Of a DNA stretch of 64,000 nucleotides, positions 20,146 through 63,517 are shown in pieces. This DNA is from a virus. Each line of letters starts with the position of its first letter. Within the stretch, counting starts at the first letter, position 1. Where the stretch lies: the IMG/VR virus record IMGVR_UViG_3300037076_000416, positions 7,172 to 71,171 of that record; one strand, written 5' to 3'. The notes below the pieces were generated by a model. It was not told where the DNA came from. It searched no databases and saw nothing but the letters and a program-made list of their open reading frames with translations. Position numbers and translations under genes: made by a program.

Positions 20146-20221
20146 GCGCCTGTAGCTCAGTGGATAGAGCGTCGGCCTCCGGAGCCGAAGGTCGCAGGTT
20201 CGAATCCTGTCGGGCGCGCCA
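20146..20221 (+). tRNA. tRNA-Arg(CCG)
   Basis: Acceptor stem GCGCCTG/CGGGCGC, D arm AGCTCAGTGGATAGAGC, anticodon arm TCGGC-CTCCGGA-GCCGA, T loop GGTTCGAATCC, encoded CCA. Confidence 0.97.
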
Positions 20222-21659
20222 TTTCAACCTTTTCGGGCAGCGCCAGCGCCAATCCGTGCGCGTAGGCCGCCTGGGTCAGCCGGACACCCACGATCAAGGG
20301 GCCCGCAACCGTGATCCGCTCGTAGATGGCGTGCATCAGGTCTGCCTTTTCCTTCGGTACGTCAGCGGCTTGGAAGGACTCGCCGAGGGCGCGGAGCCAC
20401 TCGACCGCGCGCTGGCCGGATAGGCCTTGGGCTGTGCGCTCCACGACGGCGTCCCGCTGCTCGCGGAGTGCCTTGAGGCGCGTCAGGTAGGTGTCGTCAC
20501 CGAGCCGGCCGCCGGCGTGCTCCAGCGCGAGCTCGCGGATCTGCCGGTCGATCCGTGCCCGGTCGATCGCGACCGGCTGCTGGCTCGACCCGAGGGCAGC
20601 GACGACCGATGCCATCGTGCGGTCGTCGAGCGCGATGCCGGCGACCTGGGCCAGCACCGGCGCTTCCCAGGTCTGGTCGCCGAGGCGGGCCCTACGACCC
20701 CAGGCCTCGCACGGCTTCGCGTGGTGCTTGCGGTGGCGGCCATCGGCGAAGGTGCCGTCGTTGCGGAGTTGCCGCCCGCAGACGCACACGAGGAGGCCGC
20801 CGAGCAGGTCGACGCGGTCCCAGTTCTTGGGTCCCCCACCGCGGGTCTTGGCGCGGCGGATCTCCTCCACCCGCGCCCAGAGCTCGTCCGACACGGGCGG
20901 CGCCGCCCGCCAGGGTGCCGGTCGCCGCGTCTCGTCATTGCCGCGGTGCCGGCGGATCCAGCCGTTGTAGAGCGGGTTCATCAGGATCATCCGGATGCCG
21001 GTCGCGGCGAGCCCGGTCTCTGCCTCGAGCTGCACCGCGCTCACGTTCCCCAGGGCGTACCGCTCGAACAGGCCGACCGCGACCGGCATGCGGTCGGGAT
21101 CGATCTCGAGGGTGTGCGGCGGCTCGGGCAAGCGTCGGAAGCCGAGGCCAGCATGGCCGCCGGGATCATGTTCGTGGTCGAACTTGGCGGCGTAGCCCTC
21201 GGTGATGCGCTCGGAGAGGCGGCGGCTGTACTTCTCCGCCCCGGCCGCCTCGGAGATCAGCTCGTCCCAGTCCGAGGGGTCGGAGCTCAGGATCTTCCGG
21301 TCGCACATGACCAAGGCGACACCATTCGGGTGCAGCTCGTCTTCGAGCAGTTCGAGGGTCCGTCGCAGGTTGCGCTGCCAGCGATCCGAGTACCCCGTGA
21401 GGAGGAGGTCGAAGCGGCCCGATCGGAGATCGTCGACCATCGTGGCCATCGTGGCCGAGCGCCAGACGGTGCGACCGCTGTGCGCAACCTGGTACACGAG
21501 CCCCGTGTCGACGAGGCCATGCCGCTCGATGAAGCGGTCCTGCTGCTCACGCTGGCTTGCTGGGCCGTAGCGGTCGTACTGGCCGGCCGTTGACTCCCTG
21601 ATCCAGCGGGCCGCCCGGAAGCCGCCGATCTCGTCGAGGGAGCGGGGAAGGCGCTTCAC
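20157..21659 (-). CDS. Large serine recombinase (prophage integrase); 3' end runs antisense through the tRNA
   Basis: WIREST catalytic Ser, SGRT, SDRWQRN, ILMNPLYNG recombinase domain, LLGGLLVCVCG zinc ribbon, coiled coil. Confidence 0.93.
   Translation of the reverse strand: MKRLPRSLDEIGGFRAARWIRESTAGQYDRYGPASQREQQDRFIERHGLVDTGLVYQVAHSGRTVWRSATMATMVDDLRSGRFDLLLTGYSDRWQRNLRRTLELLEDELHPNGVALVMCDRKILSSDPSDWDELISEAAGAEKYSRRLSERITEGYAAKFDHEHDPGGHAGLGFRRLPEPPHTLEIDPDRMPVAVGLFERYALGNVSAVQLEAETGLAATGIRMILMNPLYNGWIRRHRGNDETRRPAPWRAAPPVSDELWARVEEIRRAKTRGGGPKNWDRVDLLGGLLVCVCGRQLRNDGTFADGRHRKHHAKPCEAWGRRARLGDQTWEAPVLAQVAGIALDDRTMASVVAALGSSQQPVAIDRARIDRQIRELALEHAGGRLGDDTYLTRLKALREQRDAVVERTAQGLSGQRAVEWLRALGESFQAADVPKEKADLMHAIYERITVAGPLIVGVRLTQAAYAHGLALALPEKVEMARPTGFEPATFGSGGRRSIH
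20206..20228 (+). repeat. attL: 23-bp direct repeat CCTGTCGGGCGCGCCATTTCAAC
   Basis: Identical to 63495-63517; includes the tRNA 3' end. Confidence 0.93.
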
Positions 21660-21835
21660 GCGGCTGTGACCTTCTTGATCGTGACCATCTCGAACACCTT
21701 TGCTCTGGCGTCAAGTCCCTCGCGGCGTAGCTGCTCGGGGCCATCCGGGTAGCGCCGATGCAGCGCCTCCACGTAGCGGGCGAGGGCGGCCACGAGCGGA
21801 TCGCGCTCCACGGCCGGCTGGATCTGGGCCGTCAC
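21656..21835 (-). CDS. 59-aa protein coupled to the integrase start (candidate recombination directionality factor)
   Basis: Below the track cutoff: VTAQIQPAVERDPLVAALARYVEALHRRYPDGPEQLRREGLDARAKVFEMVTIKKVTAA; GTGA overlap with the integrase. Confidence 0.6.
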   Translation of the reverse strand: MTAQIQPAVERDPLVAALARYVEALHRRYPDGPEQLRREGLDARAKVFEMVTIKKVTAA

Positions 21836-21953
21836 GCGACGCCCCAGGGGTGAGCAGGGTGAGCAAGAACCCCGTTTCTCGGTCTCATCCTGATGTACGT
21901 GGAGGGTGCACCAGAGAATCGGTCAGATGCTCCCCCTGCTCCCCCCGGCCGCC

Positions 21954-24218
21954 TCATTCGGCGGGCCTCGCCACGATCAGCCCCTCGTAGACGGGACTGC
22001 CGTGGACCTTCCGCCGCCGCACGGGGAAGCCGAGCCGATCGTGGCGCTCCGTGAACGCTCGCCCAAAGACGGGGGCCGTCATCGGCTTGGACCCGATCGA
22101 CTCGGCCCAGGCGACGTACTGCTCGTAGATCTTGGGCCCGGGCGTCGAGGCACCCACCTGCGCCGTGACCCAGTCGCGTAGGAACCCGCCGAGGGGGTCC
22201 TCGTCCTCTCGGTAGGCGGCGGTTTCGCGGGCGACGACTGCAGGGAACGGATGGAGCGTCCCTGCGGTGGCATAGGCGACGGCGCCACGGACGGCCCACG
22301 CTAGGATGCCCGGCGCCTCGCCAGCGAGGATGAGGGCGAGACCCGGGTCCTCCGCGGGCCCGTCCCCGGTCTCGCCGCGCTTGGCGAACCGGACCGCCCA
22401 GGGGATCAGGGCGATCCGACGCCAGAACCCTTCGGAGGCATCGTCGGCGGCGGGGAGATGATTAGTCGCGAGGTGAAGCGTGTGGGTCGGCGCCCACTCC
22501 TCCTGGCGCCCGTGGAGCTCGCGTCCGGTCATCTTGTCGATCGTCGCGAGGCGCTTGAGCGTCCCGCCCTTGAGCTTGGCCCCTTGCTCGGGTTCGCTCG
22601 TGAACGCGAGGCGTGCGCCGCGAAGGCGCATGAGATCGGAGGTGGGGGCACCGGCCGTCCGGTTGGCGTTGATGACCGTCTCGACCGCGATCTCGACGCT
22701 GTAGTCGCCAGCGACCTCACGGCCGAGAGTCCGGAAGGCCACGGACTTCCCGTTGTTGCCCGAGCCGTAGTGGACGGCCAGCAGCTCCTTGGAGGTTCCG
22801 ACGAGCGATGCCCCGATGAGCGTCGCGAACCAGCCGACGAGTTCCTCGTCGCCGGCGAAGACCTCCTGGAGGAAGCGGTCCCAGCGCGGGCATCTGGCTC
22901 GCGGGTCGTAGTCGAGGTGGGTCGATCGACTGACCATGTCGGTGGGTCGCCCGACTCGCAGGGCGCCGGTCCGGAGATCGACGAGCCCGTTCTCACAGCC
23001 GAGGATCCACGGGTCAAGGTCCCAAGCGTCGCCGCTCGTCGCCGCAGGCTTCATCGACGAAGTGATCCGAAGGCCGGCCGCGATCGCGTCGTCCGTGGCG
23101 CCCGCCGCCATGATCGCGGCGAGCGTCCGCGCGCGCATCTCGCTTTCGGTGATCTTGACGGCCTCCTGGTAGCGGAGGCCGAGCACATCAAGCCAGAGCC
23201 GCCGGATCTCCTGGTCACGATCCGGGCGCCAACGATGGCCATGCCAGATCAGCCAGATCCGCCGACCGTGGTCGAAGCGGATCGCAGACCCTGTTCGCTC
23301 GACGAAGTGATAGGCCGCGAGCGACTGGCGACTGAGGTGATCGATGCGGTCGCCGGACGGGTTCTCCCCGACGTCGGCTGCGGTCCACGGTTGGGCATCG
23401 TCCGAGCCGAGGTTGGGCTCGACAACTCCGGCCGATCGCCCCGGGAACGCAATGCCGGGAGGCTTGCTCCCGATCGACTCCGCGATCCTGCGGACCTCTC
23501 GCTCATCGAGCGGCGGCTGACACTGGATGCGATTTGCCTCGAGCAGCGCAGCAAGGATGACTGGCTCCGGTGCTCCACGTCCGCGGATCGAGCCGGCGAG
23601 TGAGGTCAACCTGACGTTGCGCTCACCCTCGGGGATTACCTCGGGGATGACAGGCATGGGGCCTCGGAGCACGCGACCCGCGCCCGCAAGCTCGCCGATC
23701 CATCCGGGAGCCTCCGCGAGCCCCAGCTTCGGCTCGCGGAGCCACCGGTAGCGGCGGCCGCTGTGGTGGAGCGAGGGTGGCGCGACGAGGTAGCTGCCGG
23801 GGCCTCGGAGGTCGATCTTCGGGAGGATGGCGACCTTTGGCCCGATCCGAGCGTCCGTCATGTAAATGTAGTGCCGGCCCCGACCAGTCTCGACCGTTGC
23901 CGTCTCCGGAAGCGAGTAGCCGCCCGCCTCAAGGGCGGCCACGCCTTCGGGACCGTCGACGTCAACCGCAACGACGCCGGATGGCACCGCGACCCCGATG
24001 TTCGCGTCACGCCACCTCGTCCACCACGCGCGGATCCGATCGGTGTCGGTGGCGGCATCCTTGATGCCGTTCTTGGTCCGCGGGTGCTTCCCCGGCGATG
24101 AGCAGTCGGGTCGACGGCAGTCACAGGCGCCGTCGATTGGTGTGTGCAGCGGGAACACTCCCCAACCGGTGGCGGCTATCGCCAGGGCGCCCTCGAGGAG
24201 AGTCCGCGGCGAGTTCAC
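21954..24218 (-). CDS. Bifunctional primase-polymerase/PriCT plus P4/D5-type SF3 helicase
   Basis: GWGVFPL, CDCRRPDCSSPGKHP, VDVDG, TGRGRHYIY, IDLRGPGSYLVAPPS, PEGERN, YGSGNNGKS, ATNHLP, FWRRI. Confidence 0.92.
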   Translation of the reverse strand: MNSPRTLLEGALAIAATGWGVFPLHTPIDGACDCRRPDCSSPGKHPRTKNGIKDAATDTDRIRAWWTRWRDANIGVAVPSGVVAVDVDGPEGVAALEAGGYSLPETATVETGRGRHYIYMTDARIGPKVAILPKIDLRGPGSYLVAPPSLHHSGRRYRWLREPKLGLAEAPGWIGELAGAGRVLRGPMPVIPEVIPEGERNVRLTSLAGSIRGRGAPEPVILAALLEANRIQCQPPLDEREVRRIAESIGSKPPGIAFPGRSAGVVEPNLGSDDAQPWTAADVGENPSGDRIDHLSRQSLAAYHFVERTGSAIRFDHGRRIWLIWHGHRWRPDRDQEIRRLWLDVLGLRYQEAVKITESEMRARTLAAIMAAGATDDAIAAGLRITSSMKPAATSGDAWDLDPWILGCENGLVDLRTGALRVGRPTDMVSRSTHLDYDPRARCPRWDRFLQEVFAGDEELVGWFATLIGASLVGTSKELLAVHYGSGNNGKSVAFRTLGREVAGDYSVEIAVETVINANRTAGAPTSDLMRLRGARLAFTSEPEQGAKLKGGTLKRLATIDKMTGRELHGRQEEWAPTHTLHLATNHLPAADDASEGFWRRIALIPWAVRFAKRGETGDGPAEDPGLALILAGEAPGILAWAVRGAVAYATAGTLHPFPAVVARETAAYREDEDPLGGFLRDWVTAQVGASTPGPKIYEQYVAWAESIGSKPMTAPVFGRAFTERHDRLGFPVRRRKVHGSPVYEGLIVARPAE

Positions 24219-24409
24219 CGCTGGCGGGCGGGATCGGCGAGGTAATCCTCGAGGTCTTGGGGCCTGACGCGCACCGCCCGGCCGATTCGGATCGAGCGCA
24301 CGTGCCCCAGGTCGATGAGTTTCCAGGCCATCGATCGGCTCACCGACAGTCGATCGGCGATCTGCTCGATGCGGAGCAACCGGCCGCAATCCCCGTCCAC
24401 CGCATCCAT
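24215..24409 (-). CDS. Excisionase-like HTH protein
   Basis: LLRIEQIADRLSVSRSMAWKLIDLGHVRSIRIGRAVRV. Confidence 0.85.
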   Translation of the reverse strand: MDAVDGDCGRLLRIEQIADRLSVSRSMAWKLIDLGHVRSIRIGRAVRVRPQDLEDYLADPARQR

Positions 24410-24554
24410 GGGCTTCCCTTGCGTTGACACTTGTGGCATCCTCGTGTCATCGCGTCCACGACAACTGCTGCTGACGCTTGCCGATAGTCTAAGGCGCCCC
24501 GATGTCCACTGCAACCCACAATCTGTCGATGACACCGATCGAGGCTTGGTCCGC

Positions 24555-25883
24555 GTGAGCCTGCGGCCGCGCTTCGCTGGTGAAGGCCGGCTTCGCCTGC
24601 CCGCGAGCGTCCAGGTCCTCTACCGCGCCAACGATCTCGGTTGGGCACGCGGGGACATCGTTGGGGACCTCGCGGACGCGGGCTACGACCCGTTCGAGCG
24701 CCTGTCGAGCGGACTGCTACTGGCGGAGGACTTCGCCCGGGTCGACCTTTCGAACCGGAAGGTGACCCGGCCGTGGTACCAGGAGCACGGGGTGCTCGAC
24801 CTCTCACATTTCTTCCCTGCTGACACGTTCGCCGTGTCACTCCACGTTCGTGAAGATCCACCCTTTCACGATGCTGAAGTCGACGTTCGGCGGCAGCAAG
24901 AGAACGTGCGCTGGCATCTCCTTTCACTCGCGCGCCTCAGTGATCACCTGCCGGAAGGTGGCAAGCCCCGCGCGGGCTGGGCCCCAGGCGAGGGCTGGGA
25001 CACGCGTTGGGCGCAGCCCGCGCTGCGGGACCCGAGCGGTGGCGCGCTGTGGCTCGGCGCTTCCTCGAACTTCGAGGCGCGCATCACGCCGATGATGCAG
25101 CGCTACGAGCGCTTCGAGGACGTCCCCGACGGCGGATCACTCCACGACTACAACCTCGATGGCGTCAGGCCAAAGCGGTTCACCGAGCAATGGTGGCCGG
25201 CCGCGCACGCGGCCTGGCAGCGCATCCTCAGCGAAAGCATCCCGGTCCTATGGGTGCCCGAGATCGACTGGGCCTACGAGTGGTCGGAGTACGACATCGA
25301 GTCGGGCTCGCCGTCGGGACGATCACCGACCGGTCGGCTCAGCTCGGACTGGTGGGGGCTCGTCGAGCTCGAGCGTCGTCTGCTGACGTCCTACGTCCGA
25401 AGGGCGGCGGAGTACCAAGTCGAAATCGGGCGACCCTGGCTGGAGCGAGACCTCACGCGCGAGGGGGAGAGTCTCGCGGACCGCTTCCCCGGTCCGCTCG
25501 TCGTTCACGAGCGGCGCTGGTGGAGCTCGCTGCTCGCGCCCGTCTACCTCCAGCTCCTCGAAGCTCTGCGTCGGGTAACGGAGGGCCAGCGCGGCGCGGC
25601 CTTGTGTCGGGAGTGTGGTCAGCCGTTCCTCACGTTGGACGCGCGGCGTTCCAGCTTCTGTACCGACCGAGAGCGCTACCGCTTCTCCCAGCGGGACCGG
25701 CGGCGGCGGCTCAGCGAAGCCGCCCACGATCCGGAGATCGACGCGGAATTCGAACGCATCGAACAGGAGCTCGAGGAAGAGGCGCGATCTGATCGTGCGA
25801 TCAAGGCGGACCTCGCCAGCCCAGAGCCATGGCTGCCCAAGAAGGTGGCCAAGACGCTCCGGCGTCGCAAACCATACCGGTGA
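24555..25883 (+). CDS. Hypothetical protein with C-terminal CGNR-like zinc finger; divergent from xis, candidate regulator
   Basis: CRECGQPFLTLDARRSSFCTDRERYRFSQR; start uncertain (track gives 24315). Confidence 0.6.
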   Translation: MSLRPRFAGEGRLRLPASVQVLYRANDLGWARGDIVGDLADAGYDPFERLSSGLLLAEDFARVDLSNRKVTRPWYQEHGVLDLSHFFPADTFAVSLHVREDPPFHDAEVDVRRQQENVRWHLLSLARLSDHLPEGGKPRAGWAPGEGWDTRWAQPALRDPSGGALWLGASSNFEARITPMMQRYERFEDVPDGGSLHDYNLDGVRPKRFTEQWWPAAHAAWQRILSESIPVLWVPEIDWAYEWSEYDIESGSPSGRSPTGRLSSDWWGLVELERRLLTSYVRRAAEYQVEIGRPWLERDLTREGESLADRFPGPLVVHERRWWSSLLAPVYLQLLEALRRVTEGQRGAALCRECGQPFLTLDARRSSFCTDRERYRFSQRDRRRRLSEAAHDPEIDAEFERIEQELEEEARSDRAIKADLASPEPWLPKKVAKTLRRRKPYR

Positions 25884-26087
25884 CGCCCGTCGCCCCTCAC
25901 GTCACGCCGGATTGGTCATTCCACCGGCTCACAAGAAGGTGACCTGTGGCCCGCCGATCAGGTGCTATGCTCGGCGGACATGTTGCTTGGGGTAGGACCA
26001 TCGACCCGTATCCGGACTTGACCTTGCCCTGCCAGGATCGGCGCCAACGGTGAATCGGATCCGCGGAGACTCTAGAACGACCCAGCG

Positions 26088-26477
26088 ATGCTGTCGTTGA
26101 CCCGCGCTGAGGCGCTCACGCAGGCGCGCCTCGAGTTCCAGCGTTACGTGGAGCGTCTCCTCATGGAGAAACGGCTGCCACCTGAATACGTCGCTGACCT
26201 TGGCAAACATTGGGACAAGCGCCTAGCGAGCCTCGCCCGGCTCGGCTCGGATCTCCTGATCAATCCTGAGGTCCTGTCGTCGCTCACGGTCCTGGCAAGG
26301 GCGGTACGCGATCCGGACATGGATGCGGACGCGGCCGTCCGGTGGCTGGACGTGTTCCCGGACCGAGTCGCAGATCTCTTCCCGCCGTCGGACGTCACCT
26401 TCCGGCTGATCGATGCGGCGGAGCAGCGTGAGAGTAGCGAGACCGTCCAAGCGGGTGCGATGGCGTCGGCTGCCTGA
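26088..26477 (+). CDS. Hypothetical helical protein with low-complexity tail ending -SAA (candidate antitoxin)
   Basis: 129 aa; first gene of a tightly spaced operon. Confidence 0.6.
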   Translation: MLSLTRAEALTQARLEFQRYVERLLMEKRLPPEYVADLGKHWDKRLASLARLGSDLLINPEVLSSLTVLARAVRDPDMDADAAVRWLDVFPDRVADLFPPSDVTFRLIDAAEQRESSETVQAGAMASAA

Positions 26478-26478
26478 C

Positions 26479-26892
26479 GTGTCCGCCGACTTTAGGCGCC
26501 ATCCGATCCAGGCGATTGAGGTGCGCGCGGACCGGATAATCGCAGAGCGGCGTCCTCGTGCTGCGGGAAAGACCGACGTCGCTCCCACGTCACATACCCC
26601 GCGAGTGCGGCTCGTCAACATCGCCGAGGACGGGCGGTCGTTCACGATCGAAGTCCAAGCCAAGGTCGAAGTCCCACTTGTCGATGACGAGGTCTGGGCG
26701 GCAACGATCCGGCTGACTGCCACCTTTGTCTCTGATGTGGTCGTTCGCAGGTACGACGCGCGTGCCTTTGCGAACGCCTCGGGCGTCTTCCTCGTCTGGC
26801 CTTACGCCCGGACATATCTGAACGAGTTGGCTCGCATCGCTGGGGTCACGGCTCCGCTCTTGCCTCTTGTATCCCGGCCACCTGAGTCCTGA
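26479..26892 (+). CDS. SecB-like chaperone
   Basis: Beta-rich N-half, then IRLTATF...AFANASGVFLVWPYARTYLNELARIAGVTAPLLPLV, matching the SecB PYxR...LP C-terminal pattern. Confidence 0.7.
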   Translation: MSADFRRHPIQAIEVRADRIIAERRPRAAGKTDVAPTSHTPRVRLVNIAEDGRSFTIEVQAKVEVPLVDDEVWAATIRLTATFVSDVVVRRYDARAFANASGVFLVWPYARTYLNELARIAGVTAPLLPLVSRPPES

Positions 26893-26903
26893 CGATCGCG
26901 ACT

Positions 26904-27596
26904 GTGAACCACAAACCTGGCCGGCCCGATGCCAGGCAGGAATCCGCGTTCAACCACCAAGACGTCGTTGACATCACTGATGCCCTCGTTGCGAACCCCG
27001 ACCTTCGGCTGTTGAAGCTGGCCGATACCCTCTCGCTGGTTCGAGAGGTCATGAGCGACCAAGAGGTTCGTGACTTCATCGGGTTCTCTCTGCTCACCGA
27101 CGTCAAGTTGGGTCCCGTGGCCATGACAGTCGCTACCAAGGCGCGCGACATCGCGACAGCGCCGAGCCGCGATGACCGAATGCGGCGGCGCGGCGCGCTC
27201 CTGGAGCGCCTGGTACACAAGCTCGTCGAGCGGCGGCTGCCTACCCATACCCACCACGAGCATCAGGTCGAGCTGACCCACAATCCTCGCTCCCGGATCC
27301 AGTGGACACGGCCCAAGGAGGTCGTGGCTGACGGCCCGGAGTTCGAGGTGTACGAGTGCAAGTCGGACGGACTCCCCGACGTGGCGGATATCGACGAACT
27401 GAGTGATGTTCGGACGACCGCGAGAGCCGAAGGCACAGATGCCCGACCGACCATCGTCACCTTAGGCAGCGAGGGGAGCCTGAGAATCCAAGCGAAGGCA
27501 TGGCGGCTCACGGAAACGATCTTTGGAGTGACCGCGGACAAGATCCTCCGATTGGCATCGGAGCCTCCCGGCAAGCCGATCCAGCCGGCGCCGTAA
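26904..27596 (+). CDS. Hypothetical protein with PD-(D/E)XK-like nuclease pattern
   Basis: RGALLERLV helix, PKEVVAD, EVYECK. Confidence 0.55.
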   Translation: MNHKPGRPDARQESAFNHQDVVDITDALVANPDLRLLKLADTLSLVREVMSDQEVRDFIGFSLLTDVKLGPVAMTVATKARDIATAPSRDDRMRRRGALLERLVHKLVERRLPTHTHHEHQVELTHNPRSRIQWTRPKEVVADGPEFEVYECKSDGLPDVADIDELSDVRTTARAEGTDARPTIVTLGSEGSLRIQAKAWRLTETIFGVTADKILRLASEPPGKPIQPAP

Positions 27597-27653
27597 ACCG
27601 TAGAGCGCCCTCGGACAACGACCGACAAATCACTTCCGTCATCAAAGGTCCAC

Positions 27654-55152: not shown

Positions 55153-55153
55153 T

Positions 55154-55235
55154 GGACGTACCCGAGGTCGCGACAGGCAGGGGACCCGGGAGTCGGTGTG
55201 GATCAGACCAGCGCGCCGCCATGCCCCCAAGCGTG
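55154..55235 (+). repeat. ~82-bp direct repeat, copy 2
   Basis: Three substitutions and one indel relative to 53575-53657. Confidence 0.92.
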
Positions 55236-55319
55236 GGGTAGGTTTGGGCCATGCCTTCGGGGCTTCCGGGCGATGGGGCGAAGATTGAACCGGGCAGGGT
55301 CCGCTCGCATCTGTAGAGC

Positions 55320-55892
55320 ATGGTGGCCATCGAACGACTGGAGGGCCTGATCAACGTGGGGCCTCGCGCGTCCGGGGGGACGGAGGTCGAGCGGAGGGCA
55401 GCCTTCGAGCGGTTCACCCAGAGCCGTTTGGAGCGCGCCTACCGCTTGGCTGGTCTCCTTCTCCGCGATCGAACGGATGCCGAGGATGCCGTCCATGACG
55501 CCGCGGTCCTGGCCTGGCTCCACTGGGGGGAGCTGCGCGATCCCGAGCGGGTCGACGCCTGGTTCGACCGGATCCTCGTCAACGGCTGCCGCGCGCGGAT
55601 GCGCCGAAAGATGATCCGCCCGCTCGTCTTTGCCAACGGAGCCGAGGCGCCGGGCCCCGACGCATTCGCCGGCCTGCACGAGCGCGAGATCCTCCATCGG
55701 GCTCTCGCGACCCTCGACGCCGACCACCGCGTGGCGGTCGTCCTGCGCTACATCGCCGACCTGTCGCCCGCCGAGATCGCCGCCCGGACGGGCGAGCGCG
55801 AGGGCACCGTGAAGTCGCGGCTCCACTACGCGCTGCGCCAGATGCGTGCGGCCCTCGACGCCGCGGAGCGGGCGCCCGGAGGTTCCCGATGA
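55320..55892 (+). CDS. ECF sigma-70 factor
   Basis: DAEDAVHDA, AWFDRILVNGCR, GTVKSRLHYAL. Confidence 0.92.
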   Translation: MVAIERLEGLINVGPRASGGTEVERRAAFERFTQSRLERAYRLAGLLLRDRTDAEDAVHDAAVLAWLHWGELRDPERVDAWFDRILVNGCRARMRRKMIRPLVFANGAEAPGPDAFAGLHEREILHRALATLDADHRVAVVLRYIADLSPAEIAARTGEREGTVKSRLHYALRQMRAALDAAERAPGGSR

Positions 55893-57388
55893 ACGACGAG
55901 CGCCTTGAGCGCGAGGTGCGTGCCGCCCTCCTCGAGGACGATCCCGGCCCGGTCGGCAGCGGACTCCGGGCGCGCATCGCCGCGGTGCCCGACGACGCGG
56001 CGCTTCGGCCCAGGCTCGTCCGGTCTCCGCGCGTTTCCCGGCTGATGGTCTCGGCGGCGGCAGTCGCCGCGGTGGTCCTCGTCAGCGCCACGCTCGTCAT
56101 CGGGTTGGGCGCTCGCCGGACCTCGGTCGGACCGGCGCCGAGCGTTCTTCCCTCGGTTATGCCGATCAGCCCGGCGCCGTCAGCCGTGCCATCTGTGTCG
56201 CCCGCTCCCACGCCGAGTCCGTCGGGGTTGACTCCCGTGCCTGCCCCGTGGGGTGGCCTGCGCTGGCCGGCACCGATCGTCTTGCCCGACGCCAACTCGG
56301 TCGAGGGCGTCACCACATTCGACGGACAGCTCTTCGCAGTCGGCCACATCGTCGGAACGGGTGGCCAGAACCCGGTCGCTGTCTGGCGATCGTCGGACGG
56401 GACGACGTGGACGCCACTCGCCCAGAGTGGAGCGACGTTTGCGGGGGACGCCTTTGTCGAAAGCCTCGTCGCGACCCCGGACGGCCTTCTCGCCTGGGGG
56501 CCGGCCGGCGGATCAACCTGCACCGGACAGGGAGAGGGGCAGGCAACGTGCGTGCCGCCTTCCGACGTCATCTGGAGGTCGCCCGACGGGAGTAACTGGA
56601 CCCGGGATGCGTCTGCCTTCGCGGGCGCGTGGCTCCAGGCGATCGCCAGAGGAACGCACGGTTTCGTGGCCATCGGGGACATGGGCTGGGACAGGCCGGC
56701 TATCTGGCTCTCGGACACCGGTGCGACCTGGCAGCGGCTCGCCCTGCCCGCCGCCGTGTTCGCCGACGCGCACTTCTCCACCGTCCGCGCGACGTCGACC
56801 GGTTACGTCCTCGCCGGCGGGACGGGTTCGATTTCGGTCTCGGTGACGGGCGGGCCGATGGCGACCGCGTCGAAGGTGGCTGCGGGCTGGTGGTCTCCCG
56901 ACGGGCGCACCTGGACGAAGGCGACGGTGACGCGCGCGACCGAGACAGGATCCAACCTTGGGACAATCTCGGTCGGTTCGCATGGCCTGGTGGCCACAGG
57001 AGCCAGCCCCGCCGAACGGGATCATGCAGCGTGGACATCAGCCGACGGAGGCACCTGGACCCCGATCGCCGCGGGCTACATCGCAGCTCCCGCCACCTCG
57101 ACAAGCGTCGCCACGCTGCCGTCGGACTTGATCGTCGATAACGGCACTGACCTCATCGCGATCGCCGTCAACGAGCAGCTCGGGCTCCGAATGTGGACCT
57201 CGTCCGACGGCGTCGCCTGGCGGCCGCTGCCGTTCTCCGGTGCCATCGACGCGCTTCCGGCGTGGCCGGGCGACCCGACCCGGCCCGTGTTCGACCGAGC
57301 CTTCGTCGTACCGGACGGCCTCGTCGTCATCGGCCACTTGGGCAGCTCGTTGCAGCAGTCCGTCTGGCACGTCGTCGCGCTGCCGTAG
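55889..57388 (+). CDS. Putative anti-sigma factor with TM helix, Pro/Ser linker and W-x-S-x-D-G repeat propeller
   Basis: WRSSDGTTW, WRSPDGSNW, WLSDTGATW, WWSPDGRTW, WTSADGGTW, WTSSDGVAW. Confidence 0.8.
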   Translation: MNDERLEREVRAALLEDDPGPVGSGLRARIAAVPDDAALRPRLVRSPRVSRLMVSAAAVAAVVLVSATLVIGLGARRTSVGPAPSVLPSVMPISPAPSAVPSVSPAPTPSPSGLTPVPAPWGGLRWPAPIVLPDANSVEGVTTFDGQLFAVGHIVGTGGQNPVAVWRSSDGTTWTPLAQSGATFAGDAFVESLVATPDGLLAWGPAGGSTCTGQGEGQATCVPPSDVIWRSPDGSNWTRDASAFAGAWLQAIARGTHGFVAIGDMGWDRPAIWLSDTGATWQRLALPAAVFADAHFSTVRATSTGYVLAGGTGSISVSVTGGPMATASKVAAGWWSPDGRTWTKATVTRATETGSNLGTISVGSHGLVATGASPAERDHAAWTSADGGTWTPIAAGYIAAPATSTSVATLPSDLIVDNGTDLIAIAVNEQLGLRMWTSSDGVAWRPLPFSGAIDALPAWPGDPTRPVFDRAFVVPDGLVVIGHLGSSLQQSVWHVVALP

Positions 57389-57809
57389 GACCGTCCCGAC
57401 CATCGTCGGGTCGCGTGACCTGCGCCATCCGCGCGATCGAGCGGGAGGTGGCTCGGTGGTGGCTGTCTGCGGTTGGGCCGAGATTCGTTGATGCCGCTGG
57501 CTACCGGTCAGCAACCCTCGGGGAGTGCGGGCCGGGCTGACAGGGCTCCCCAGCCCCCGATGCACGGTCAGCGTTGAGGCATCTTCAAAGGCTGTTCGTC
57601 TCGGGCCGATGACCCAGTCCACAGGGCAAACCAGCATCCCAACCGGGGCGCGAAACGGGACTCCTGCCGAGTGTCAGAACCCACCTCTTGCCGAGGAGTA
57701 ATCAACACGGAAAGTCCTCCCAATCCGGCAGGAGGTGGAGATGCCGGTGACTCCCTGAGCGTCGCGATCAGCCTCGTTCGACGTTCGCCATCCCACCGTC
57801 GCGAGGTGA

Positions 57810-58223
57810 TCAGAGTCTTCGGGGCGACCTTCTCCGAGCGAGTCGGAGGAAGAAAGTCCCGCACGCGAACCCGAGGCTGCCGAATGTCCCGGCGGCCCAC
57901 GCCCCACTCACACCGCCGACTACCAGAGCCACCAGACTCATCGCGCCTTGCGGGCTGGCGAGCAACATGGCCGACGCCCACACAACGCCGCCACCGAACG
58001 CGCCGACAAACATTGCGAACCATGCGTCCGGCACAGGCGCGAGCACGCGAACCGCCAGACCAACGCCGAAGAAACAGGAGATGACCACGGCGTAGAAGAC
58101 CACGCTCGACGACACCGCGTCTGGGGCGAGCCCCGAGAGCGCGAGCCCGAGTGGCATCGCGAGGGCGGCGACAACGCCCGCCGCAATGGCGATGCCGACG
58201 TGGGCGCGCGACACAACTGGCAT
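57810..58223 (-). CDS. Small multi-pass membrane protein
   Basis: About four hydrophobic segments. Confidence 0.55.
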   Translation of the reverse strand: MPVVSRAHVGIAIAAGVVAALAMPLGLALSGLAPDAVSSSVVFYAVVISCFFGVGLAVRVLAPVPDAWFAMFVGAFGGGVVWASAMLLASPQGAMSLVALVVGGVSGAWAAGTFGSLGFACGTFFLRLARRRSPRRL

Positions 58224-58412
58224 ACCGTCCTCCGCGCCCGGCCACCTGCTCCTCTTCGCAGGCGCCGGCCTCCATTATTGCGCGGTCGTCCAGCCGCTGA
58301 TGGCCACCGAGAGGGCGAAATCGAGGCCAAATCGGAAATCAACCGCCATCTCCACCTCCTGCCGGACTGGAAGTCCTCTTGCTGCCGCACTCGAGCCGAC
58401 CTGAAGGCCCGG

Positions 58413-58929
58413 TTACGGCGCCTGTGACGCGGACGTCACGACCAGCGGCAGGTTGGGCGGCACGGCCCCGTCCTGCCAGTCGGCCAGCGTCGCCGGGGTG
58501 CACTTCGCGGCTGACAGGACGAGGCCGCCGCTTGTGGTGTAGGGGAAATAGCAGCTCAGCCCGACCGCGCGTTCACGGCCGCCGTCGAGCGTCACCAGCG
58601 CGGCGACCCAGGTGTCGATGCCGTATGTGAGCCGCGGGGTTCGCTGCTCGCCCCCGTCGGTGACAAAGTGGCTCGGAAGCGAGACCCACTCGACCTGCAC
58701 CACCTGCGACCGCTCCGCGTCTGAGAGCGCGGACCGCGCGCCGCTCGAGATCACTCCACACTCGTCGCGTGCCGGTGGGCAGGCGATCTGGGGGCCGATC
58801 CAGATGCCGTCAACGAGCCGGGCTCCTGGATCCGTCCAGTGCCCGTGGGCTGCGCCGCCACAGCCCGCGACGATCGCCCCGAGCATGAGCCCCAGGAGAG
58901 CACGAGCGGGCACGCCAAGCCTCGACACG
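58413..58929 (-). CDS. Putative lipoprotein
   Basis: LLGLMLGAIVAGC lipobox-like; start approximate. Confidence 0.55.
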
Positions 58930-59075
58930 GCGCCATCTTGGCCACGGACGGCGGCCCGGGGCAACTGCCCAATGGGACCTGTCGAGCAGGCTTCGACTTC
59001 TGCCCCGCCTGAGGAGGCGCGAGCTGCCTGCAATCGCAGTTTGAGTGACGCCATCGCCCGTGCAAGGTTGCATCC

Positions 59076-59412
59076 CTAGAACAGGCGTGCGACTCCGGAC
59101 CTATCGCGCGATGGCGCGGCAGTCATTCCCCGCGAGCAGCGGGAACCTCCAGATACGCTCCTCGGCGAACGCCAAGGAGCCCACCGCCACAAGGGAGCCA
59201 GCGACGCGGCAGTTCGACTCCGTGGGTGGTCGCCGTCAAATGGCCGAGGATTGAACCCAGATGCTGCCATCTGAGCCCGGAAGTGCTTCTCGGCGAAGAC
59301 GTCGGGGCTGCTCCCGCTAGGTTCTGACGAACACCCAGCCCAGCACCGCCATGACGACGACCACGCCCATCATCACGAGGTAGTAACGGCGAACGAGTCC
59401 GAGAATGTTCAT
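59076..59412 (-). pseudogene. Degraded membrane-anchored protein gene
   Basis: MNILGLVRRYYLVMMGVVVVMAVLGWVF, then a stop or frameshift. Confidence 0.35.
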
Positions 59413-59553
59413 GATCGCCTCTCCATGGCAGCGGTCGCGGGAACCGAAGTTCGCGTCAGGTCTCGGCGCGATCCCGTGGGCCGACCTCGTACCGGCGTTC
59501 TGCGAAAGCGGCGACGGCCGGCGAATGCGTTGCGACCAGTATCGTCGCTCCGA

Positions 59554-59790
59554 TCAGGTCGCGCTTTGGGCCAGACCCTCGGGTTCGGGCAGACGCGGCG
59601 CCAGGATCCACACGAGCTGGGCGGTCGTCGTCGCGCCAACCTTGGACCGAGCGTTCGCCAGGTGGTGCTTCACGGTCGAGTGCGACAGACCCAGGCGGTG
59701 GGCGGCCGCCTTCTCCGACCCGGCGACGAGGACGGCCGCGACCACCCCGACCTCCCGGTCCGTCGCGCATCCGGCGGGGCGGTCCCTCAC
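59554..59790 (-). CDS. Small LuxR-type HTH protein
   Basis: TDREVGVV...SEKAAAHRLGLSHSTVKHHLANARSKVGATTTAQLV; GTG overlaps the stop of the orphan integrase tail. Confidence 0.8.
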   Translation of the reverse strand: MRDRPAGCATDREVGVVAAVLVAGSEKAAAHRLGLSHSTVKHHLANARSKVGATTTAQLVWILAPRLPEPEGLAQSAT

Positions 59791-59870
59791 GCCAGCCGCC
59801 TCGCCGCGGCGATCCACTCATCGCGGCCCTCAATCGGCATGTCGTAGGTTGAAATCGCGCGTCCAACACC
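59787..59870 (-). other. att P-arm encoding an alternative integrase C-terminus (GVGRAISTYDMPIEGRDEWIAAARRLA*)
   Basis: 59814-59870 matches 63440-63496 at 56 of 57 nt and ends at the CC crossover. Confidence 0.85.
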
Positions 59871-60684
59871 AGTCAACGCGGGTATCGCCCGAGAGCGTGG
59901 TGTTGCGATGGCCCCGAGTGCGCCCACGGGCGCCAGCGGGCGCGCCTGTGGCGTCGTCGGCGTTGGGTTGGTCGCTGACGCGCATGTACGTCTTTTCGGC
60001 GGGACCGAGGGCGTTATACACGCCGTCACGCCAGGAGCCATCGAGGCTGACGCCGTAAGGAGGATCGGTCGTCAGGAGCTTCGGCTCGGCGCCGTCGAGC
60101 AGGCGGGCCACATGGTCGCCATTCGTGCTGTCCCCACACAGGAGGCGATGCTCGCCGAGCTGCCAGAGGTCGCCGGGCTTCGTGCGCGGTGCCCGGCGCG
60201 CCTCCTCCAGCGCTTCGTCGAGGTCGAACGCCTCCGTCCGCTCCCGCTTCTCGCGGACTTCGAGCTTTCGGAGTAGGTCCCCGATCTCGTCCTCCCCAAA
60301 GCCCGAGAGCGTGAGGTCGAGCTCGGGCGTCGCCTGCAAGTCGGCCAGCATGCGTGCCAGGAGCTGGTCGTCCCAGGAGCCGCTGATCTTGTTGAGGGCG
60401 AGCCCGAGGACACGTGCCTGCTCCACGCTGATGTCGAGCCAGGTCACGGGGACAGTGGTCAGCCCGAGCCGTCGTGCTGCCACGAGGCGCTGGTGGCCGC
60501 CGATGACCGTTCGGTCTTCACGCCGAGCGAGCACCGGCTGGACGAAGCCGAATTGGCGCAAGCTCCGTTCGAGCGCGTCGAGTTCGTCCTCGCTGATCCG
60601 GCGCGGGTTGGCGGGATCGGGCCGAAGCTCCTCGATCGGGACCTGGTCGACGGTGAGGGAGGGGAGCGAGGCTGAGGTGGTCAT
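59871..60684 (-). pseudogene. ParB-methyltransferase 5' half, truncated at the att crossover
   Basis: ANPRRI, IGGHQRL, HRLLCGD, TDPPYGV, GHRNTTLSGDTRVDW|; the paralog at 51580-52962 continues DW-SEAFALVP. Confidence 0.88.
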
Positions 60685-60731
60685 GCGAGGAGGGCCCTCC
60701 GGGTGTTGTCGTCTATGAAAACATCTGTTCT

Positions 60732-60992
60732 ATGCAGGACGCACCGTCGGCTGATCCCCGAGACCAGGCCATTCGCGCTGCGCTGCGCGACGTCGCCGCT
60801 CTGGCCGCGATCGTCGCGGGGGAGTTCCACGCGACCTATGTCGGACCCGACCGGGCGGGGTACCTGCACGTCCTCGGCGACTACCTCGCCGATTTGGGCG
60901 GGCCGCTCGAGGACGGACCGAACGGACCAGTGGTCGCGGTCGATGGGCGACGGATCGTCATACGGTTTGGCCGGACAGGCGGCCCTCGGTAG
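60732..60992 (+). CDS. Hypothetical protein
   Basis: 86-aa ORF of plausible composition. Confidence 0.4.
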   Translation: MQDAPSADPRDQAIRAALRDVAALAAIVAGEFHATYVGPDRAGYLHVLGDYLADLGGPLEDGPNGPVVAVDGRRIVIRFGRTGGPR

Positions 60993-60993
60993 G

Positions 60994-61302
60994 ATGGGGG
61001 AGTGGCAGGACAACCCGAGCTCATCGATGGCTGACGAGCAGGCCGAGGCGAAGGCGCTCGCGGCGCACCGCCGTGATCTGAACCGCCGGCTTCGGGCGGC
61101 ATTCATCGCAGGCGCCGAGGAGGACTCGCGCTCGAGGCTCGGCCGCGGGCTCTCCGAGGAGGAGCTCCGGCGGGTGTTGCGCCGGTATCCAGGGGACCTG
61201 CCCAGGCGACAGCCTGGTCGGATTGTGACGAGGCCGGAGACGGTGCAGAGCCTCGTGGATCCGCTCTCCCCTCCAGGAAGGTGCGGTTCCCGACGCTGGT
61301 GA
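60994..61302 (+). CDS. Hypothetical protein
   Basis: RLRAAFIAGAEEDSRSRLGRGLSEEELRRVLRRYPGD helical segment; start uncertain. Confidence 0.5.
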   Translation: MGEWQDNPSSSMADEQAEAKALAAHRRDLNRRLRAAFIAGAEEDSRSRLGRGLSEEELRRVLRRYPGDLPRRQPGRIVTRPETVQSLVDPLSPPGRCGSRRW

Positions 61303-61503
61303 CGCTCGACTGCAGGCACCTAGACATTGTGTTGAGCGTGGGCCGGGTAGACCGCGCCGATCGGAAGGGAAGAGGAGCGGGCCACGCTCCCGAGCGTAGT
61401 TGCGGTGTCCGCTCGCAGATACTGGGACGTTGTACCTGTGATCAGGTACGGGCAGCCGGGCCGCGCCGCGAACCGAATGGGCGGGTCCGGGCAAGATAGG
61501 TCG

Positions 61504-62100
61504 GTGGAGGCAAGATCGGACGCCCAAGTCATCGCCGCTTCGCGAGTCGAACCGCGCGTGTTCGCGGCGGTTTTCGATCGGCACTACGACGCCGTGCATC
61601 GCTATCTCGCCCGCCGGGTTGGATCCGACCTAGCCGACGACCTCGCCGCCGACACGTTCACCACGGCCTTCGACGCACGCCGCCGCTATGACACCGCGCA
61701 CCTAGACGCGCGCCCGTGGCTCTTCGGAATCGCCACGAACCTCCTGCGCCATCACCGCCGCGGGGAAGCTCGCCGGCTTCGGGCCTACGCCCGTCTCGAT
61801 CGCCCCGCCGACCCGGACGGCGGCTTCGGGGGGATCGAGGCCCGAGTCGACGCCGGCCGGGCGGGACCGGCGATCGCCGACGCATTGACCCGTCTCTCGG
61901 CGGGTGATCGCGACGTCCTGCTCCTCTTCGCCTGGGCCGACCTCCGGTACGAGGACATCGCCGTGGCGTTGCGGATCCCGGTCGGGACGGTGCGATCGCG
62001 GCTCCATCGCGCACGGCGCCGAGTCCGTGAACTACTGGTCGACTCCGGGCAATACCTGGGTGCCGACACCCTCACGGAGGCTCTGGAACCCGATGGATGA
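61504..62100 (+). CDS. ECF sigma-70 factor
   Basis: SDAQVI..S, ADDLAADTF, ARPWLFGIATNLL, IPVGTVRSRLHRAR. Confidence 0.93.
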   Translation: MEARSDAQVIAASRVEPRVFAAVFDRHYDAVHRYLARRVGSDLADDLAADTFTTAFDARRRYDTAHLDARPWLFGIATNLLRHHRRGEARRLRAYARLDRPADPDGGFGGIEARVDAGRAGPAIADALTRLSAGDRDVLLLFAWADLRYEDIAVALRIPVGTVRSRLHRARRRVRELLVDSGQYLGADTLTEALEPDG

Positions 62101-63139
62101 GATGGACGCCCTGCGGACCCTCGGAGGTGATGTTCCGCCCCCGGAGCCGGCGGCGAAGCGGGCCGCCCGCGCGGCGCTCGTGGCCCATGCCGAGGCCCGT
62201 TCCAGCCGACCGCGGTGGCTGCCGGACGGCCGCCTGGGCTTCAGGCGAGTTCGCGTCGTTGGCGCTCTGGCCACCCTGGGTCTCGTGGCGGTACTGGCCA
62301 GCGGCCAACTCCCGGTCGGGCCCCGGCCTGATCCTGCGGCGGCCGCTGCCCTGAACCATGCCGCCGACATCGCCGCCGCCCAGCCGGACACGGCTGGAGA
62401 CGGCTATCGATACACCAAGTCCGAGGGGGCATATCTCAGCGGTATCGGTGGTGGGCCCGAACACCCGAACGGCGTGTGGGCGCTCGTGCCGGTCAGTCGC
62501 GAGATCTGGATCAAGCCCGACGGTTCTGGGCGGATCGTCGAGTCGCGGGGCGAACCGATCTGGTTCGGCCCAGCCGACCGTGCGGCGTGGCAGGCGGAGG
62601 GCTCACCCGATCTGCGCGGCACACCCTTCTCCGACACGCGGTTCGGTCCGACGCCTCCCGGCGCCGACCCATGGGTCCCGCAGCCCTGGCCCGGCAGCCT
62701 CTACTACCAGAACGTCGATGCCCTCCCCACCGACGTCGGGACACTTCGCCACATGATCGACGAACGCGCCGCGGCGAACGGCGGTGGAGCCACCGATTAC
62801 GAGCGGTTCACGATCGTCGGCGACCTGCTTCGAGAGACGGTCGCGGCGCCGAAGGTGCGCGCTGCGCTCTACCGGGTCGCCGCGAGTCTGAATGGGGTAG
62901 AACTCGTTGGCTCGATGACCGATCGAGCCGGAAGAACAGGGACGGCGGTCTCGATGACGAATGACCAGTCCAGCCGTGGCCTCGAGCGGCGCGTTCTGAT
63001 CTTCGACCCGCAGACCTCCTCGCTGTTGGCTGAGGAGGACGTTCTGCTTCACAAGGTGGACTGGCTCGACGCCGAGCCCCCGCTGGTCATCGGCTACAAC
63101 ACCTACGTCACGTCCGAGATTGTCCCGACCATCCCGTAG
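62093..63139 (+). CDS. CU044_5270-like putative anti-sigma membrane protein
   Basis: TM helix, REIWIKPDG, ALPTD, PKVRAALYRV, TDRAGRTG, LIFDPQT. Confidence 0.8.
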   Translation: MDEMDALRTLGGDVPPPEPAAKRAARAALVAHAEARSSRPRWLPDGRLGFRRVRVVGALATLGLVAVLASGQLPVGPRPDPAAAAALNHAADIAAAQPDTAGDGYRYTKSEGAYLSGIGGGPEHPNGVWALVPVSREIWIKPDGSGRIVESRGEPIWFGPADRAAWQAEGSPDLRGTPFSDTRFGPTPPGADPWVPQPWPGSLYYQNVDALPTDVGTLRHMIDERAAANGGGATDYERFTIVGDLLRETVAAPKVRAALYRVAASLNGVELVGSMTDRAGRTGTAVSMTNDQSSRGLERRVLIFDPQTSSLLAEEDVLLHKVDWLDAEPPLVIGYNTYVTSEIVPTIP

Positions 63140-63164
63140 CAGGTGCTCGAGGGTGTCCGCGACA

Positions 63165-63413
63165 TCACCGCGCGCACATTCGCTCGAGTTCTTCGCGGTG
63201 GGTGAAGCTGGCCTGTGCCTCATCGATGCAGCCGCAGCGATCGAAGAGGCGAGCCAGGTGCCAGTGGACCGTCTTGGTCCGGATCCCGAGTTGAGCCGCC
63301 GCACCCTTGCGTGAGCCGGTCTGACAGCGAGCGAGCAGGACCTCGAGCTGCCGGTGGGTCGGGCTCGCGCCGAGCGGACTTGAGAGCTCGCCGCGCAGGT
63401 ATCCGTCCCTCAC
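63165..63413 (-). CDS. Small LuxR-type HTH protein
   Basis: THRQLEVL...SRKGAAAQLGIRTKTVHWHLARL; GTG overlaps the stop of the second integrase tail. Confidence 0.75.
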   Translation of the reverse strand: MRDGYLRGELSSPLGASPTHRQLEVLLARCQTGSRKGAAAQLGIRTKTVHWHLARLFDRCGCIDEAQASFTHREELERMCAR

Positions 63414-63473
63414 GCTGATCTGACCCGGGCGGCCGCTTCCCACTCATCGCGGCCCTCGATCGGCATGTCGTAG

Positions 63474-63517
63474 GTTGAAATCGCGCGTCCAACACCTGTC
63501 GGGCGCGCCATTTCAAC
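63474..63517. repeat. attR: 44-bp imperfect palindrome centred on CC, containing the 23-bp tRNA-end repeat
   Basis: GTTGAAATCGCGCGTCCAACA-CC-TGTCGGGCGCGCCATTTCAAC. Confidence 0.92.

Follow-up and report, generated by a model that had tools for sequence, protein, structure and literature searches.

A large serine integrase in this stretch carries the phage attachment site (attP) inside its own gene, so that the prophage and the free phage encode integrases with different C-termini. The stretch analyzed, called the window here, is 64,000 nucleotides (nt) from a 71-kb IMG/VR virus record (IMGVR_UViG_3300037076_000416) that is classed as linear; the integrase belongs to an element inserted in a tRNA-Arg(CCG) gene. 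Related loci are labeled as Limnocylindria/Chloroflexota metagenome-assembled genomes. The explanation that accounts best for the data, and that we consider probable when taken as a whole, is that a temperate tailed phage whose host belongs to the Limnocylindria (Chloroflexota) inserted itself into tRNA-Arg(CCG) by means of this enzyme, and that the exchange of the integrase tail upon integration changes how the enzyme is controlled. The anatomy of the arrangement, its spread through the family, and selection on the tail as a peptide can be read from the sequences themselves.

The integrase gene and its attachment site

The only long open reading frame (ORF) of the window with resolvase homology lies at 20157..21659 on the minus strand and encodes 500 residues ending in ...VEMARPTGFEPATFGSGGRRSIH. 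Its product has an N-terminal resolvase-type catalytic domain and a zinc-ribbon domain (DNA-binding domain 2 [DBD2]) with an inserted coiled coil, the makeup of a large serine recombinase. Pfam Resolvase matches residues 19-159 (2.4e-11), and Pfam Recombinase, which covers DBD1 after helix E, matches weakly (17.1 bits against a cut-off of 21.1 bits). The nucleophilic serine, Ser23 in RESTAGQ, does not vary in alignment A1 and reaches at least 90% conservation in alignment A2; the zinc-site residues C292, C294, H313, and C317 are conserved as well. The terminal 65 nt of the ORF are antisense to tRNA-Arg(CCG) at 20146-20221, the sole tRNA that ARAGORN finds in the window. The protein, whose end can also be given as ...KVEMARPTGFEPATFGSGGRRSIH, takes residues 486-500 (FEPATFGSGGRRSIH) from the antisense strand of the tRNA, and its stop codon falls within the D-loop.

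A 23-nt direct repeat (family D19) is found at 20206-20228 and at 63495-63517, and a CC dinucleotide occurs at 20206-20207, 59869-59870, and 63495-63496. At the right-hand end of the element, two minus-strand frames enter from the right across such a CC, one in arm 1 (...TGVGRAISTYDMPIEGRDEWIAAARRLA, stop at 59787-59789) and one in arm 2 (...VEMARPTGVGRAISTYDMPIEGRDEWEAAARVRSA, stop at 63410-63412), and both follow the pattern G-VGRAISTYDMPIEGRDEW(E/I)AAAR...A before the stop. We refer to these codons as the native tail. The two copies are 90% identical over 72 nt (59803-59874 and 63429-63500, family D4), with unlike flanks. Because both arms are open in the integrase frame up to the CC, joining at the CC preserves the frame. 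The two isoforms have residues 1-485 in common, followed by 15 residues in the integrated form (500 amino acids [aa]) and by 27 or 26 residues in the excised form, so that the free-phage integrase would have 511-512 aa. The initial annotation had placed the attachment site within the integrase ORF and had deduced two isoforms. Both claims hold, since the ORF crosses the CC of attL and reads antisense into the tRNA gene and since both right-hand arms join it in frame; upon re-reading the window, every one of the coordinates, frames, and peptides given there proved correct.

The attP site spans about 50 bp within integrase codons 477-493 and is an imperfect palindrome whose center, the GG of Gly485 in the integrase sense (CC on the plus strand), is the crossover. 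The P arm is an imperfect inverted copy of the P' arm, matching at 20/24 symmetric positions in the window and at a mean of 17.3/24 over 19 homologous sites. That the crossover lies at the CC had been proposed before; the position is confirmed by its place at the symmetry center and by the junction at right-hand arm 1 (J2), which breaks independently exactly at the GG. The J2 partner sequence shares only ...GAC-GG(T) with the real attachment site, and, judged by this sequence, J2 is an instance of serine-integrase behavior at a pseudo-attB. The site is therefore of the serine-integrase type, with imperfect dyad symmetry around a non-palindromic 2-bp crossover and little need for identity between attP and attB (GG(T) alone at J2). 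The P' arm codes for KVEMARPT, and the same 23 bp form the tRNA 3' end plus 7 nt. It is because the P' arm carries the tRNA 3' end that the tRNA is rebuilt upon insertion, and the 21-nt identity between P' and B' exceeds what a serine integrase needs because the tRNA must be rebuilt. One 23-bp stretch serves at once as tRNA 3' end, as integrase codons, and, by prediction, as an integrase-binding half-site.

A tyrosine recombinase gene (19014-20117; Phage_integrase family) starts 29 nt from the tRNA, and a 23-bp identity at a tRNA 3' end is typical of tyrosine integrases. Could this neighbor have made the junction, with the 23-bp repeat as its core and the serine integrase ORF overlapping by chance? 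Its gene is not within the stretch bounded by the repeats, only 4 of the 146 loci searched have a relative, and the junction between serine integrase and tRNA recurs without such a gene. Moreover, the site is a palindrome centered on the CC, and the partners at J2 have no more than GG(T) in common, which serine integrases permit. We consider this origin of the junction extremely improbable and have rejected the neighbor as the responsible enzyme. The tyrosine recombinase could belong to another element on the left (window 1-19000).

The att core also appears to be the target of an insertion sequence (IS). A 1.3-kb IS sits at the same att-core position in several independent loci (L017:11453-12780, L026:4959-6290, and L041 from 3055 onward) and is also linked to proteins P0037, P0039, P0066, and P0109. 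Its transposase is of the DDE, rve type (IS481-like by eye), and a 16-bp target duplication flanks it in L017 and L026, both of which could be read through. With the IS inserted, the integrase ends in ...ARPTVSEFTT, whereas an intact tRNA is found 1.3 kb beyond.

Distribution and conservation of the native tail

The initial annotation had suggested looking among homologs for tRNA-antisense ends and a conserved orphan tail, and both are present. Among the 120 best database homologs (67-91% identical), 88 have tRNA-antisense ends (mostly PTGFEPATFGSGGRRSI[HR]), 18 have the native tail, and 14 are fragments or other. In genome loci L001-L062, the antisense of tRNA-Arg(CCG) occurs at the same position in 42 of the 68 integrase C-terminal junctions counted. 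Eighty metagenome loci yielded 40 tRNA-antisense, 13 native, and 5 other junctions, with 24 loci unmatched by the search pattern. Relatives at 31-54% identity end in native tails such as ..IPIVGRREWLRASRSA or in the antisense of other tRNAs (..GIEPAT, ..GLEPPTFRSAT, and ..DSNLRP), and the 41 representatives of at least 430 aa sort by pattern into 12 tRNA-antisense, 9 native, and 20 other ends. The arrangement is retained in relatives as distant as about 35-50% identity. A match at E <= 1e-60 occurs in 52 of the 301 genomes sampled from the host class. Comparison across these sets indicates that the junction is not a chance event, as it recurs at the same tRNA position and in most homologs, and that attP within the integrase gene is a family-wide trait of Limnocylindria (Chloroflexota) prophages.

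In several data sets, there are contigs on which the native-tail integrase is followed by phage genes and no tRNA is present at the site. The 41.7-kb G001 starts within the integrase gene, so that residues 214-486 are followed by the tail, a helix-turn-helix (HTH) gene, and genes for a ParB-methyltransferase, terminase, and portal; its other end holds a primase gene and integrase residues 1-75. In L080, L081, and L088, the native-tail integrase gene runs into that of the ParB-methyltransferase, and L080 and L081 also have a primase gene upstream and orf164 downstream. In L068 and L069 (50-54% identity), the native-tail integrase lies in the middle of the contig. Two loci from different collections, L066 and L080, show a head-to-head arrangement: native-tail integrase, ParB-methyltransferase, and orf164, then inverted orf164, ParB-methyltransferase, and an integrase C-terminus with tail. 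The ORF that overlaps the tail stop there encodes a non-HTH protein.

At least eight loci (L005, L016, L030, L036, L037, L039, L043, and L044) have a second, equally oriented integrase C-terminus with native tail at a distance of 3-9 kb from the integrated junction. These are tandem or decayed arrays at one tRNA gene, so that some integrated copies retain the free isoform.

We gathered 41 tails, of which 36 are unique; the sequences are mutually related, so the counts that follow are not independent events. The first 8 codons of the native tail are the P arm, 2 variable linker codons come next, and then PIEGRDEW and AAA. Over the unique tails, minor-allele counts at codon positions 1/2/3 are 4/2/44 for the PIEGRDEW codons and 3/8/43 for the AAA codons. 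Pairwise codon differences in the tail core number 1118 synonymous versus 237 nonsynonymous in the integrase frame, and the relation is reversed in the shifted frames (55/1288 and 27/1258 synonymous/nonsynonymous). The periodicity is unambiguous, and we conclude from it that the native tail is translated and is under purifying selection as a peptide in the integrase frame. The orphan tail is thus conserved as a peptide among homologs, as had been claimed for the window. An ATG within the tail (GATGAG) was tried as a start in another frame and rejected: its codon varies synonymously between GAT and GAC, and the frame that it would open is junk.

The tail also meets the next gene. In all 24 canonical tails, the stop codon is part of ATGA or GTGA, and the codons just before it contain a GAGG/AGG (Shine-Dalgarno) motif. 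The ORF that overlaps the stop resembles, judged by eye, an 80- to 95-aa HTH protein of the GerE/LuxR type (two types) in 19 of the 24; the Pfam GerE test was limited to the two HTH copies of the window. The stop/start overlap is retained in relatives at 38-54% identity. Because the tail stop overlaps the start of this regulator gene, integration separates the regulator gene from the ribosomes and the transcript of the integrase.

The Ala-rich ends had been likened to ssrA-type degrons. On that account the free integrase would be short-lived, and integration would remove the tag. Canonical tails do always end in Ala, with the AAA run before it, and mycobacteriophage BPs, with its tagged repressor and integrase, offers a precedent (PMC9262239). 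However, the transfer-messenger RNA tag of the host class is ANKQPALALAA (in the three genomes, out of five, in which ARAGORN reads it), whereas the tails end in RRLA, VRSA, ARSA, GLTA, or ERLA and never in LAA. The start codon of the next gene takes in the last base of the final tail codon, and the conserved R-[ST]-A and final Ala are explained without a degron because the last codons carry the Shine-Dalgarno motif and that start. The conserved part is the internal PIEGRDEW, modeled as folded, rather than the extreme C-terminus, and residues 500-511 form a docked helix in the model described below. Removal of a tag would also stabilize the integrase in the lysogen, with no evident benefit. 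The degron claim does not stand up well to this evidence, and we regard it as improbable.

Predicted structure of the tail and possible control of the integrase

The structure was predicted with AlphaFold2 for a homolog (P0096, 512 aa, 72% identical to the window integrase) from alignment A2. The model has a mean pLDDT (predicted local distance difference test) of 90.7. Its six helices over residues 329-445 are set between beta elements, crossover residues 484-486 are loose, and the tail forms a strand (491-494) and a helix (500-511), with a pLDDT of 91 for residues 491-500. The model aligns with the full-length serine-integrase structure 9dxh_A (Z 16.8, root mean square deviation [rmsd] 10.5, 392 residues aligned), with the LI integrase 4kis_B over model residues 150-464 (Z 12.4, rmsd 8.4, 229 aligned), with 6dnw_A over the same residues, and with 4bqq_B (Z 12.3, rmsd 9.0, 243 aligned); its catalytic domain aligns with TP901-1 3bvp_A (Z 15.4, rmsd 2.8, 125 aligned). 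Known structures align only to about residue 468, and the tail is therefore a family-specific addition.

When the P0096 core (1-469) and tail (470-512) were folded as separate chains from an alignment of our own making, the pair scored 0.65 against 0.16 for the best control, a mark that 58 of 80 solved complexes attain but only 2 of 110 mismatched pairs; the two are halves of one chain, in which contacts between 470-476 and 465-469 are trivial, and the score is a measure of likeness, not of binding. Three runs shared at least 95% of contacts, with a partner pLDDT of at least 69. The firmest contacts place tail residues 493-498 on the strand 456-461; tail residues 503-509 are also in the interface, whose core side includes 333-361. 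Judged by the order of secondary-structure elements, the contacted parts would be the beta hairpin that follows the helical insertion directly and the helices next to the zinc ribbon on its C-terminal side, which places the contact where DBD2 and the coiled coil meet.

This junction is reported to be where verified recombination directionality factors (RDFs) bind; most of them are said to add a beta strand to the DBD2 sheet, and most to touch the DBD2-proximal coiled coil (PMC12286644). Like the RDFs described there (SPbeta SprB, Bxb1 gp47, and phiC31 gp3), the tail is predicted to add a strand to DBD2 and to place a helix nearby, by the start of the coiled coil. Unlike RDFs, which are separate proteins acting in trans, the tail is a cis element that recombination itself removes or restores. 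Its predicted docking at the junction of zinc ribbon and coiled coil makes a role in directionality plausible, and the resemblance in contacts is a lead, not a result.

We propose the following course of events. In the free phage, an integrase of 511-512 aa would bear the conserved tail of 26-27 aa, its stop overlapping the start of the GerE-type regulator. Integration exchanges the tail for 15 tRNA-antisense residues and carries the regulator gene to the opposite prophage end. Loss of the tail would alter directionality or the responsiveness of the enzyme to a directionality factor, comparable to the change of IntP into IntX in Mx8, and integration would also stop the translational coupling to the regulator. 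That the free-form enzyme uses the tail as a functional part, docked on DBD2 where the coiled coil emerges, and that its loss alters control is about an even bet. A more specific version is offered tentatively, and we doubt it more than we believe it: the native tail may be a built-in directionality module, switched by recombination itself, with the regulator disconnected by the same event. The tail of the free isoform would then fill the docking place of the RDF, leaving the integrase deaf to the excision factor or preset against it, and the enzyme would integrate; integration would delete the tail, and the prophage isoform, with the surface free, would respond to the factor and excise.

The tail might instead be a neutral by-product of compaction, in which the ORF runs through attP, the tail is kept as an open frame leading to the regulator and as P-arm DNA, and the swap is inert. 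Much of the layout suits this alternative: attP must hold the tRNA 3' end and adjoins the integrase gene; tail codons 1-8 are the P arm; the last 3-4 codons are the Shine-Dalgarno motif and the ATGA/GTGA start in 24/24 tails; the canonical fold finishes near residue 468; and the 15-aa prophage end is wholly dictated by the tRNA sequence. Coupling, however, needs an open frame alone, yet PIEGRDEW..AAA is kept as amino acids, with 44 of 50 changes at third positions. The pattern ..PI.GR.E.L..R[ST]A persists in relatives at about 50% identity that have different att sites, the tail is modeled at a pLDDT of 91 and passes the docking controls, and L080, L081, and L088 keep the tail with no HTH gene after it. 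We therefore think an inert swap rather unlikely.

Besides the nature of the docking score, several points weigh against a controlled switch between a free and an integrated form. None of the six IMG/VR virus records checked at their ends (G000-G006; native form in all but G003) is classed as circular. A tandem array would yield an identical native junction, and at least eight loci hold such a second attP-like junction. Matches were found in 24 public runs, all as Logan contigs, and 4 runs were examined for circle junctions; their contigs break at the tRNA, and among the loose ends listed none fits the expected junction. Excision of the prophage is a proposal from its anatomy. Covariation of P and P' within molecules was not found over the att sites compared, as arms of one molecule match each other no better than arms of different molecules (17.3/24 in either case) and the observed value is equaled or exceeded in 2673 of 5000 permutations. 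As to structure, the canonical serine-integrase fold ends near residue 468, and the enzyme may therefore work without the tail; the placing of 333-361 at the DBD2-proximal end of the coiled coil follows from the order of secondary structure alone; and the window's own 500-aa prophage isoform, folded as a single sequence, gave an unusable model with a mean pLDDT of 35.

Prophage ends and relation to known systems

The features of the window are collected in Table 1. The prophage encodes the integrase, a primase, methyltransferases, a helicase, a tape measure protein, a major head protein, a portal, a large terminase, and a ParB-methyltransferase (PHROGs), together with extracytoplasmic function (ECF) sigma cargo genes, a GerE HTH gene (Pfam), and the native tail codons. 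The P arm at 59870 abuts the W codon (TGG) of the truncated ParB-methyltransferase gene, exactly where the alignment with the intact copy stops. We infer that the integrase made this junction by deleting the DNA between a tandem attP-like site and a pseudo-attB of an older prophage. The segment 59871-63494 is read as the stump of that older related prophage; it repeats the module of ParB-methyltransferase, ECF sigma factor, HTH protein, and tail.

Table 1. Coordinates of the att sites, integrase, prophage, and neighboring features in the window
Feature	Position	Strand	Evidence or remark
Tyrosine recombinase gene	19014-20117	-	Pfam Phage_integrase, 2.5e-28; starts 29 nt from the 5' side of tRNA-Arg
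tRNA-Arg(CCG)	20146..20221	+	ARAGORN; last 16 nt (20206-20221) come from the phage P' arm
Large serine integrase, prophage isoform, 500 aa	20157..21659	-	Pfam, conserved residues, homolog model
attL core	20206..20228	.	Crossover CC (20206-20207) plus 21 nt identical in P' and B'; repeat D19
Prophage proper, 39,665 bp	20206..59870	.	PHROGs, Pfam, gene map
GerE/LuxR-type HTH gene 1	59554..59790	-	Pfam GerE, 28.1 bits (cut-off 23.5); GTG start overlaps tail stop (GTGA)
Right-hand arm 1 (junction J2): CC, P arm, and native tail codons (VGRAISTYDMPIEGRDEWIAAARRLA, stop)	59787..59870	-	Abuts pseudo-attB in the ParB-methyltransferase gene of the older prophage
Truncated ParB-methyltransferase gene	ORF 59830-60684	-	Alignment to the intact copy (51580-53052) extends as far as the W codon where the gene is broken
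Segment read as older related prophage remnant	59871..63494	.	ParB-methyltransferase stump, ECF sigma gene, putative partner gene, second HTH gene and tail
Remnant ECF sigma gene	61405-62100	+	Part of remnant
Remnant putative partner gene	61904-63139	+	Part of remnant
GerE-like HTH gene 2	63165..63413	-	Pfam GerE, 22.7 bits, just under the cut-off of 23.5; GTG start overlaps tail stop
Right-hand arm 2 (attR): CC, P arm, and native tail codons (VGRAISTYDMPIEGRDEWEAAARVRSA, stop)	63410..63496	-	90% identical to arm 1
attR core	63495..63517	.	Displaced original tRNA 3' end (B'), then host flank; repeat D19

Excision via the nearer end (59870) would give the tRNA-Arg gene a foreign 3' end; only the outer end (63496) restores the tRNA, and excision there would produce a 43.3-kb circle with the remnant included. 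The prophage may therefore be locked in or oversized. In both the prophage (53777-57388) and the remnant (61405-63139), ECF sigma and downstream partner genes lie on the strand opposite the phage genes, between the ParB-methyltransferase and HTH genes, an arrangement suggestive of a recurring cargo slot. An 86-nt stretch occurs twice (53575-53660 and 55154-55238; 90-95% identical), upstream of the ECF sigma genes at 53777-54397 and 55320-55892, and may be a shared regulatory leader.

We compared this anatomy with published systems. The initial annotation knew of no characterized large serine integrase with such an arrangement. In the literature searched, we likewise found no characterized serine integrase with attP inside its own gene, nor any account of this Limnocylindria integrase family, but a described case exists: Bacillus phage vB_BsuS-Goe14, SPbeta-like and with a sprA-like large serine integrase, has attP in the part of that gene that encodes the C-terminus, and its authors offer the speculation that integration is the work of the long form and excision that of the short one (bioRxiv 10.1101/2021.11.22.469490). 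By description, the systems agree in having a large serine integrase whose own gene holds attP near its 3' end, a C-terminus that integration alters, and cut-off codons that become an orphan ORF at the other end. Goe14 targets the protein-coding spoVK with a 3-bp core and loses 131 residues of unexplained extension, whereas the Limnocylindria prophage targets a tRNA gene that the site rebuilds and swaps 26-27 residues for 15. Unlike what is described for Goe14, the Limnocylindria-family tail is under purifying selection and coupled to a downstream regulator.

The other parallels involve other enzymes. In Myxococcus phage Mx8, integration turns IntP into IntX, a prophage form whose activity is altered (PMC6070905, PMC4383910). 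There, too, attP lies within the integrase gene, the gene receives a different 3' end upon integration, and tRNA genes are the location of the site, but Mx8 Int is a tyrosine recombinase with other chemistry and site architecture, so that the likeness is one of logic, not of membership. Phage BPs and its relatives have attP in the repressor gene, a tRNA-Arg attB, a tyrosine integrase, and LAA-like degrons (PMC9262239). They resemble the present case in having attP in a coding region at a tRNA-Arg attB, a C-terminus changed by integration, and integrase and regulator in one operon. Here, in contrast, it is the serine integrase gene that attP interrupts, the downstream regulator is uncoupled rather than truncated, and no LAA-like end occurs; with attP in the integrase gene and tails ending in RRLA, VRSA, or ARSA against a host tag ending in ...ALAA, this is not integration-dependent immunity of the BPs type.

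Integration of serine recombinases at tRNA genes was called "rare" in 2011, with Mycobacterium actinomycete integrative and conjugative elements (AICEs; tRNA-Leu) and phiRSM as the cited cases (PMC3218068), and the Islander paper of 2014 called it "not known" (PMC4383910). The phiRSM recombinase, a small resolvase-type enzyme, targets tRNA-Ser, with attP between two genes (PMC4471427). The Limnocylindria integrase resembles those of the AICEs and phiRSM in integrating at a tRNA gene 3' end and differs in having attP within the recombinase gene, a placement that goes without mention in the accessible portions of PMC3218068 and PMC4471427. The features particular to the family are the tRNA target, the triple-duty 23 bp, the coupled regulator, and a tail that is selected, apparently folded, and predicted at a control point.

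The placement of attP in the integrase gene explains the orphan mini-ORFs and the tRNA-antisense protein ends in Chloroflexota metagenome annotations.

Large serine integrases are valued in genome engineering because they are strictly directional, and the natural control of their direction, beyond separate RDFs, is still being worked out. The family offers a natural two-isoform experiment, as the isoforms differ only in a short tail that is predicted to lie at a known control point, and hundreds of natural attP/attB/attL/attR sets are open to comparison. Its tRNA gene target is a conserved, ready-made landing site of a kind called rare for serine recombinases. If the tail is indeed a directionality module, one crossover would reprogram the enzyme and its operon together, across a large clade of tRNA-targeting serine integrases.

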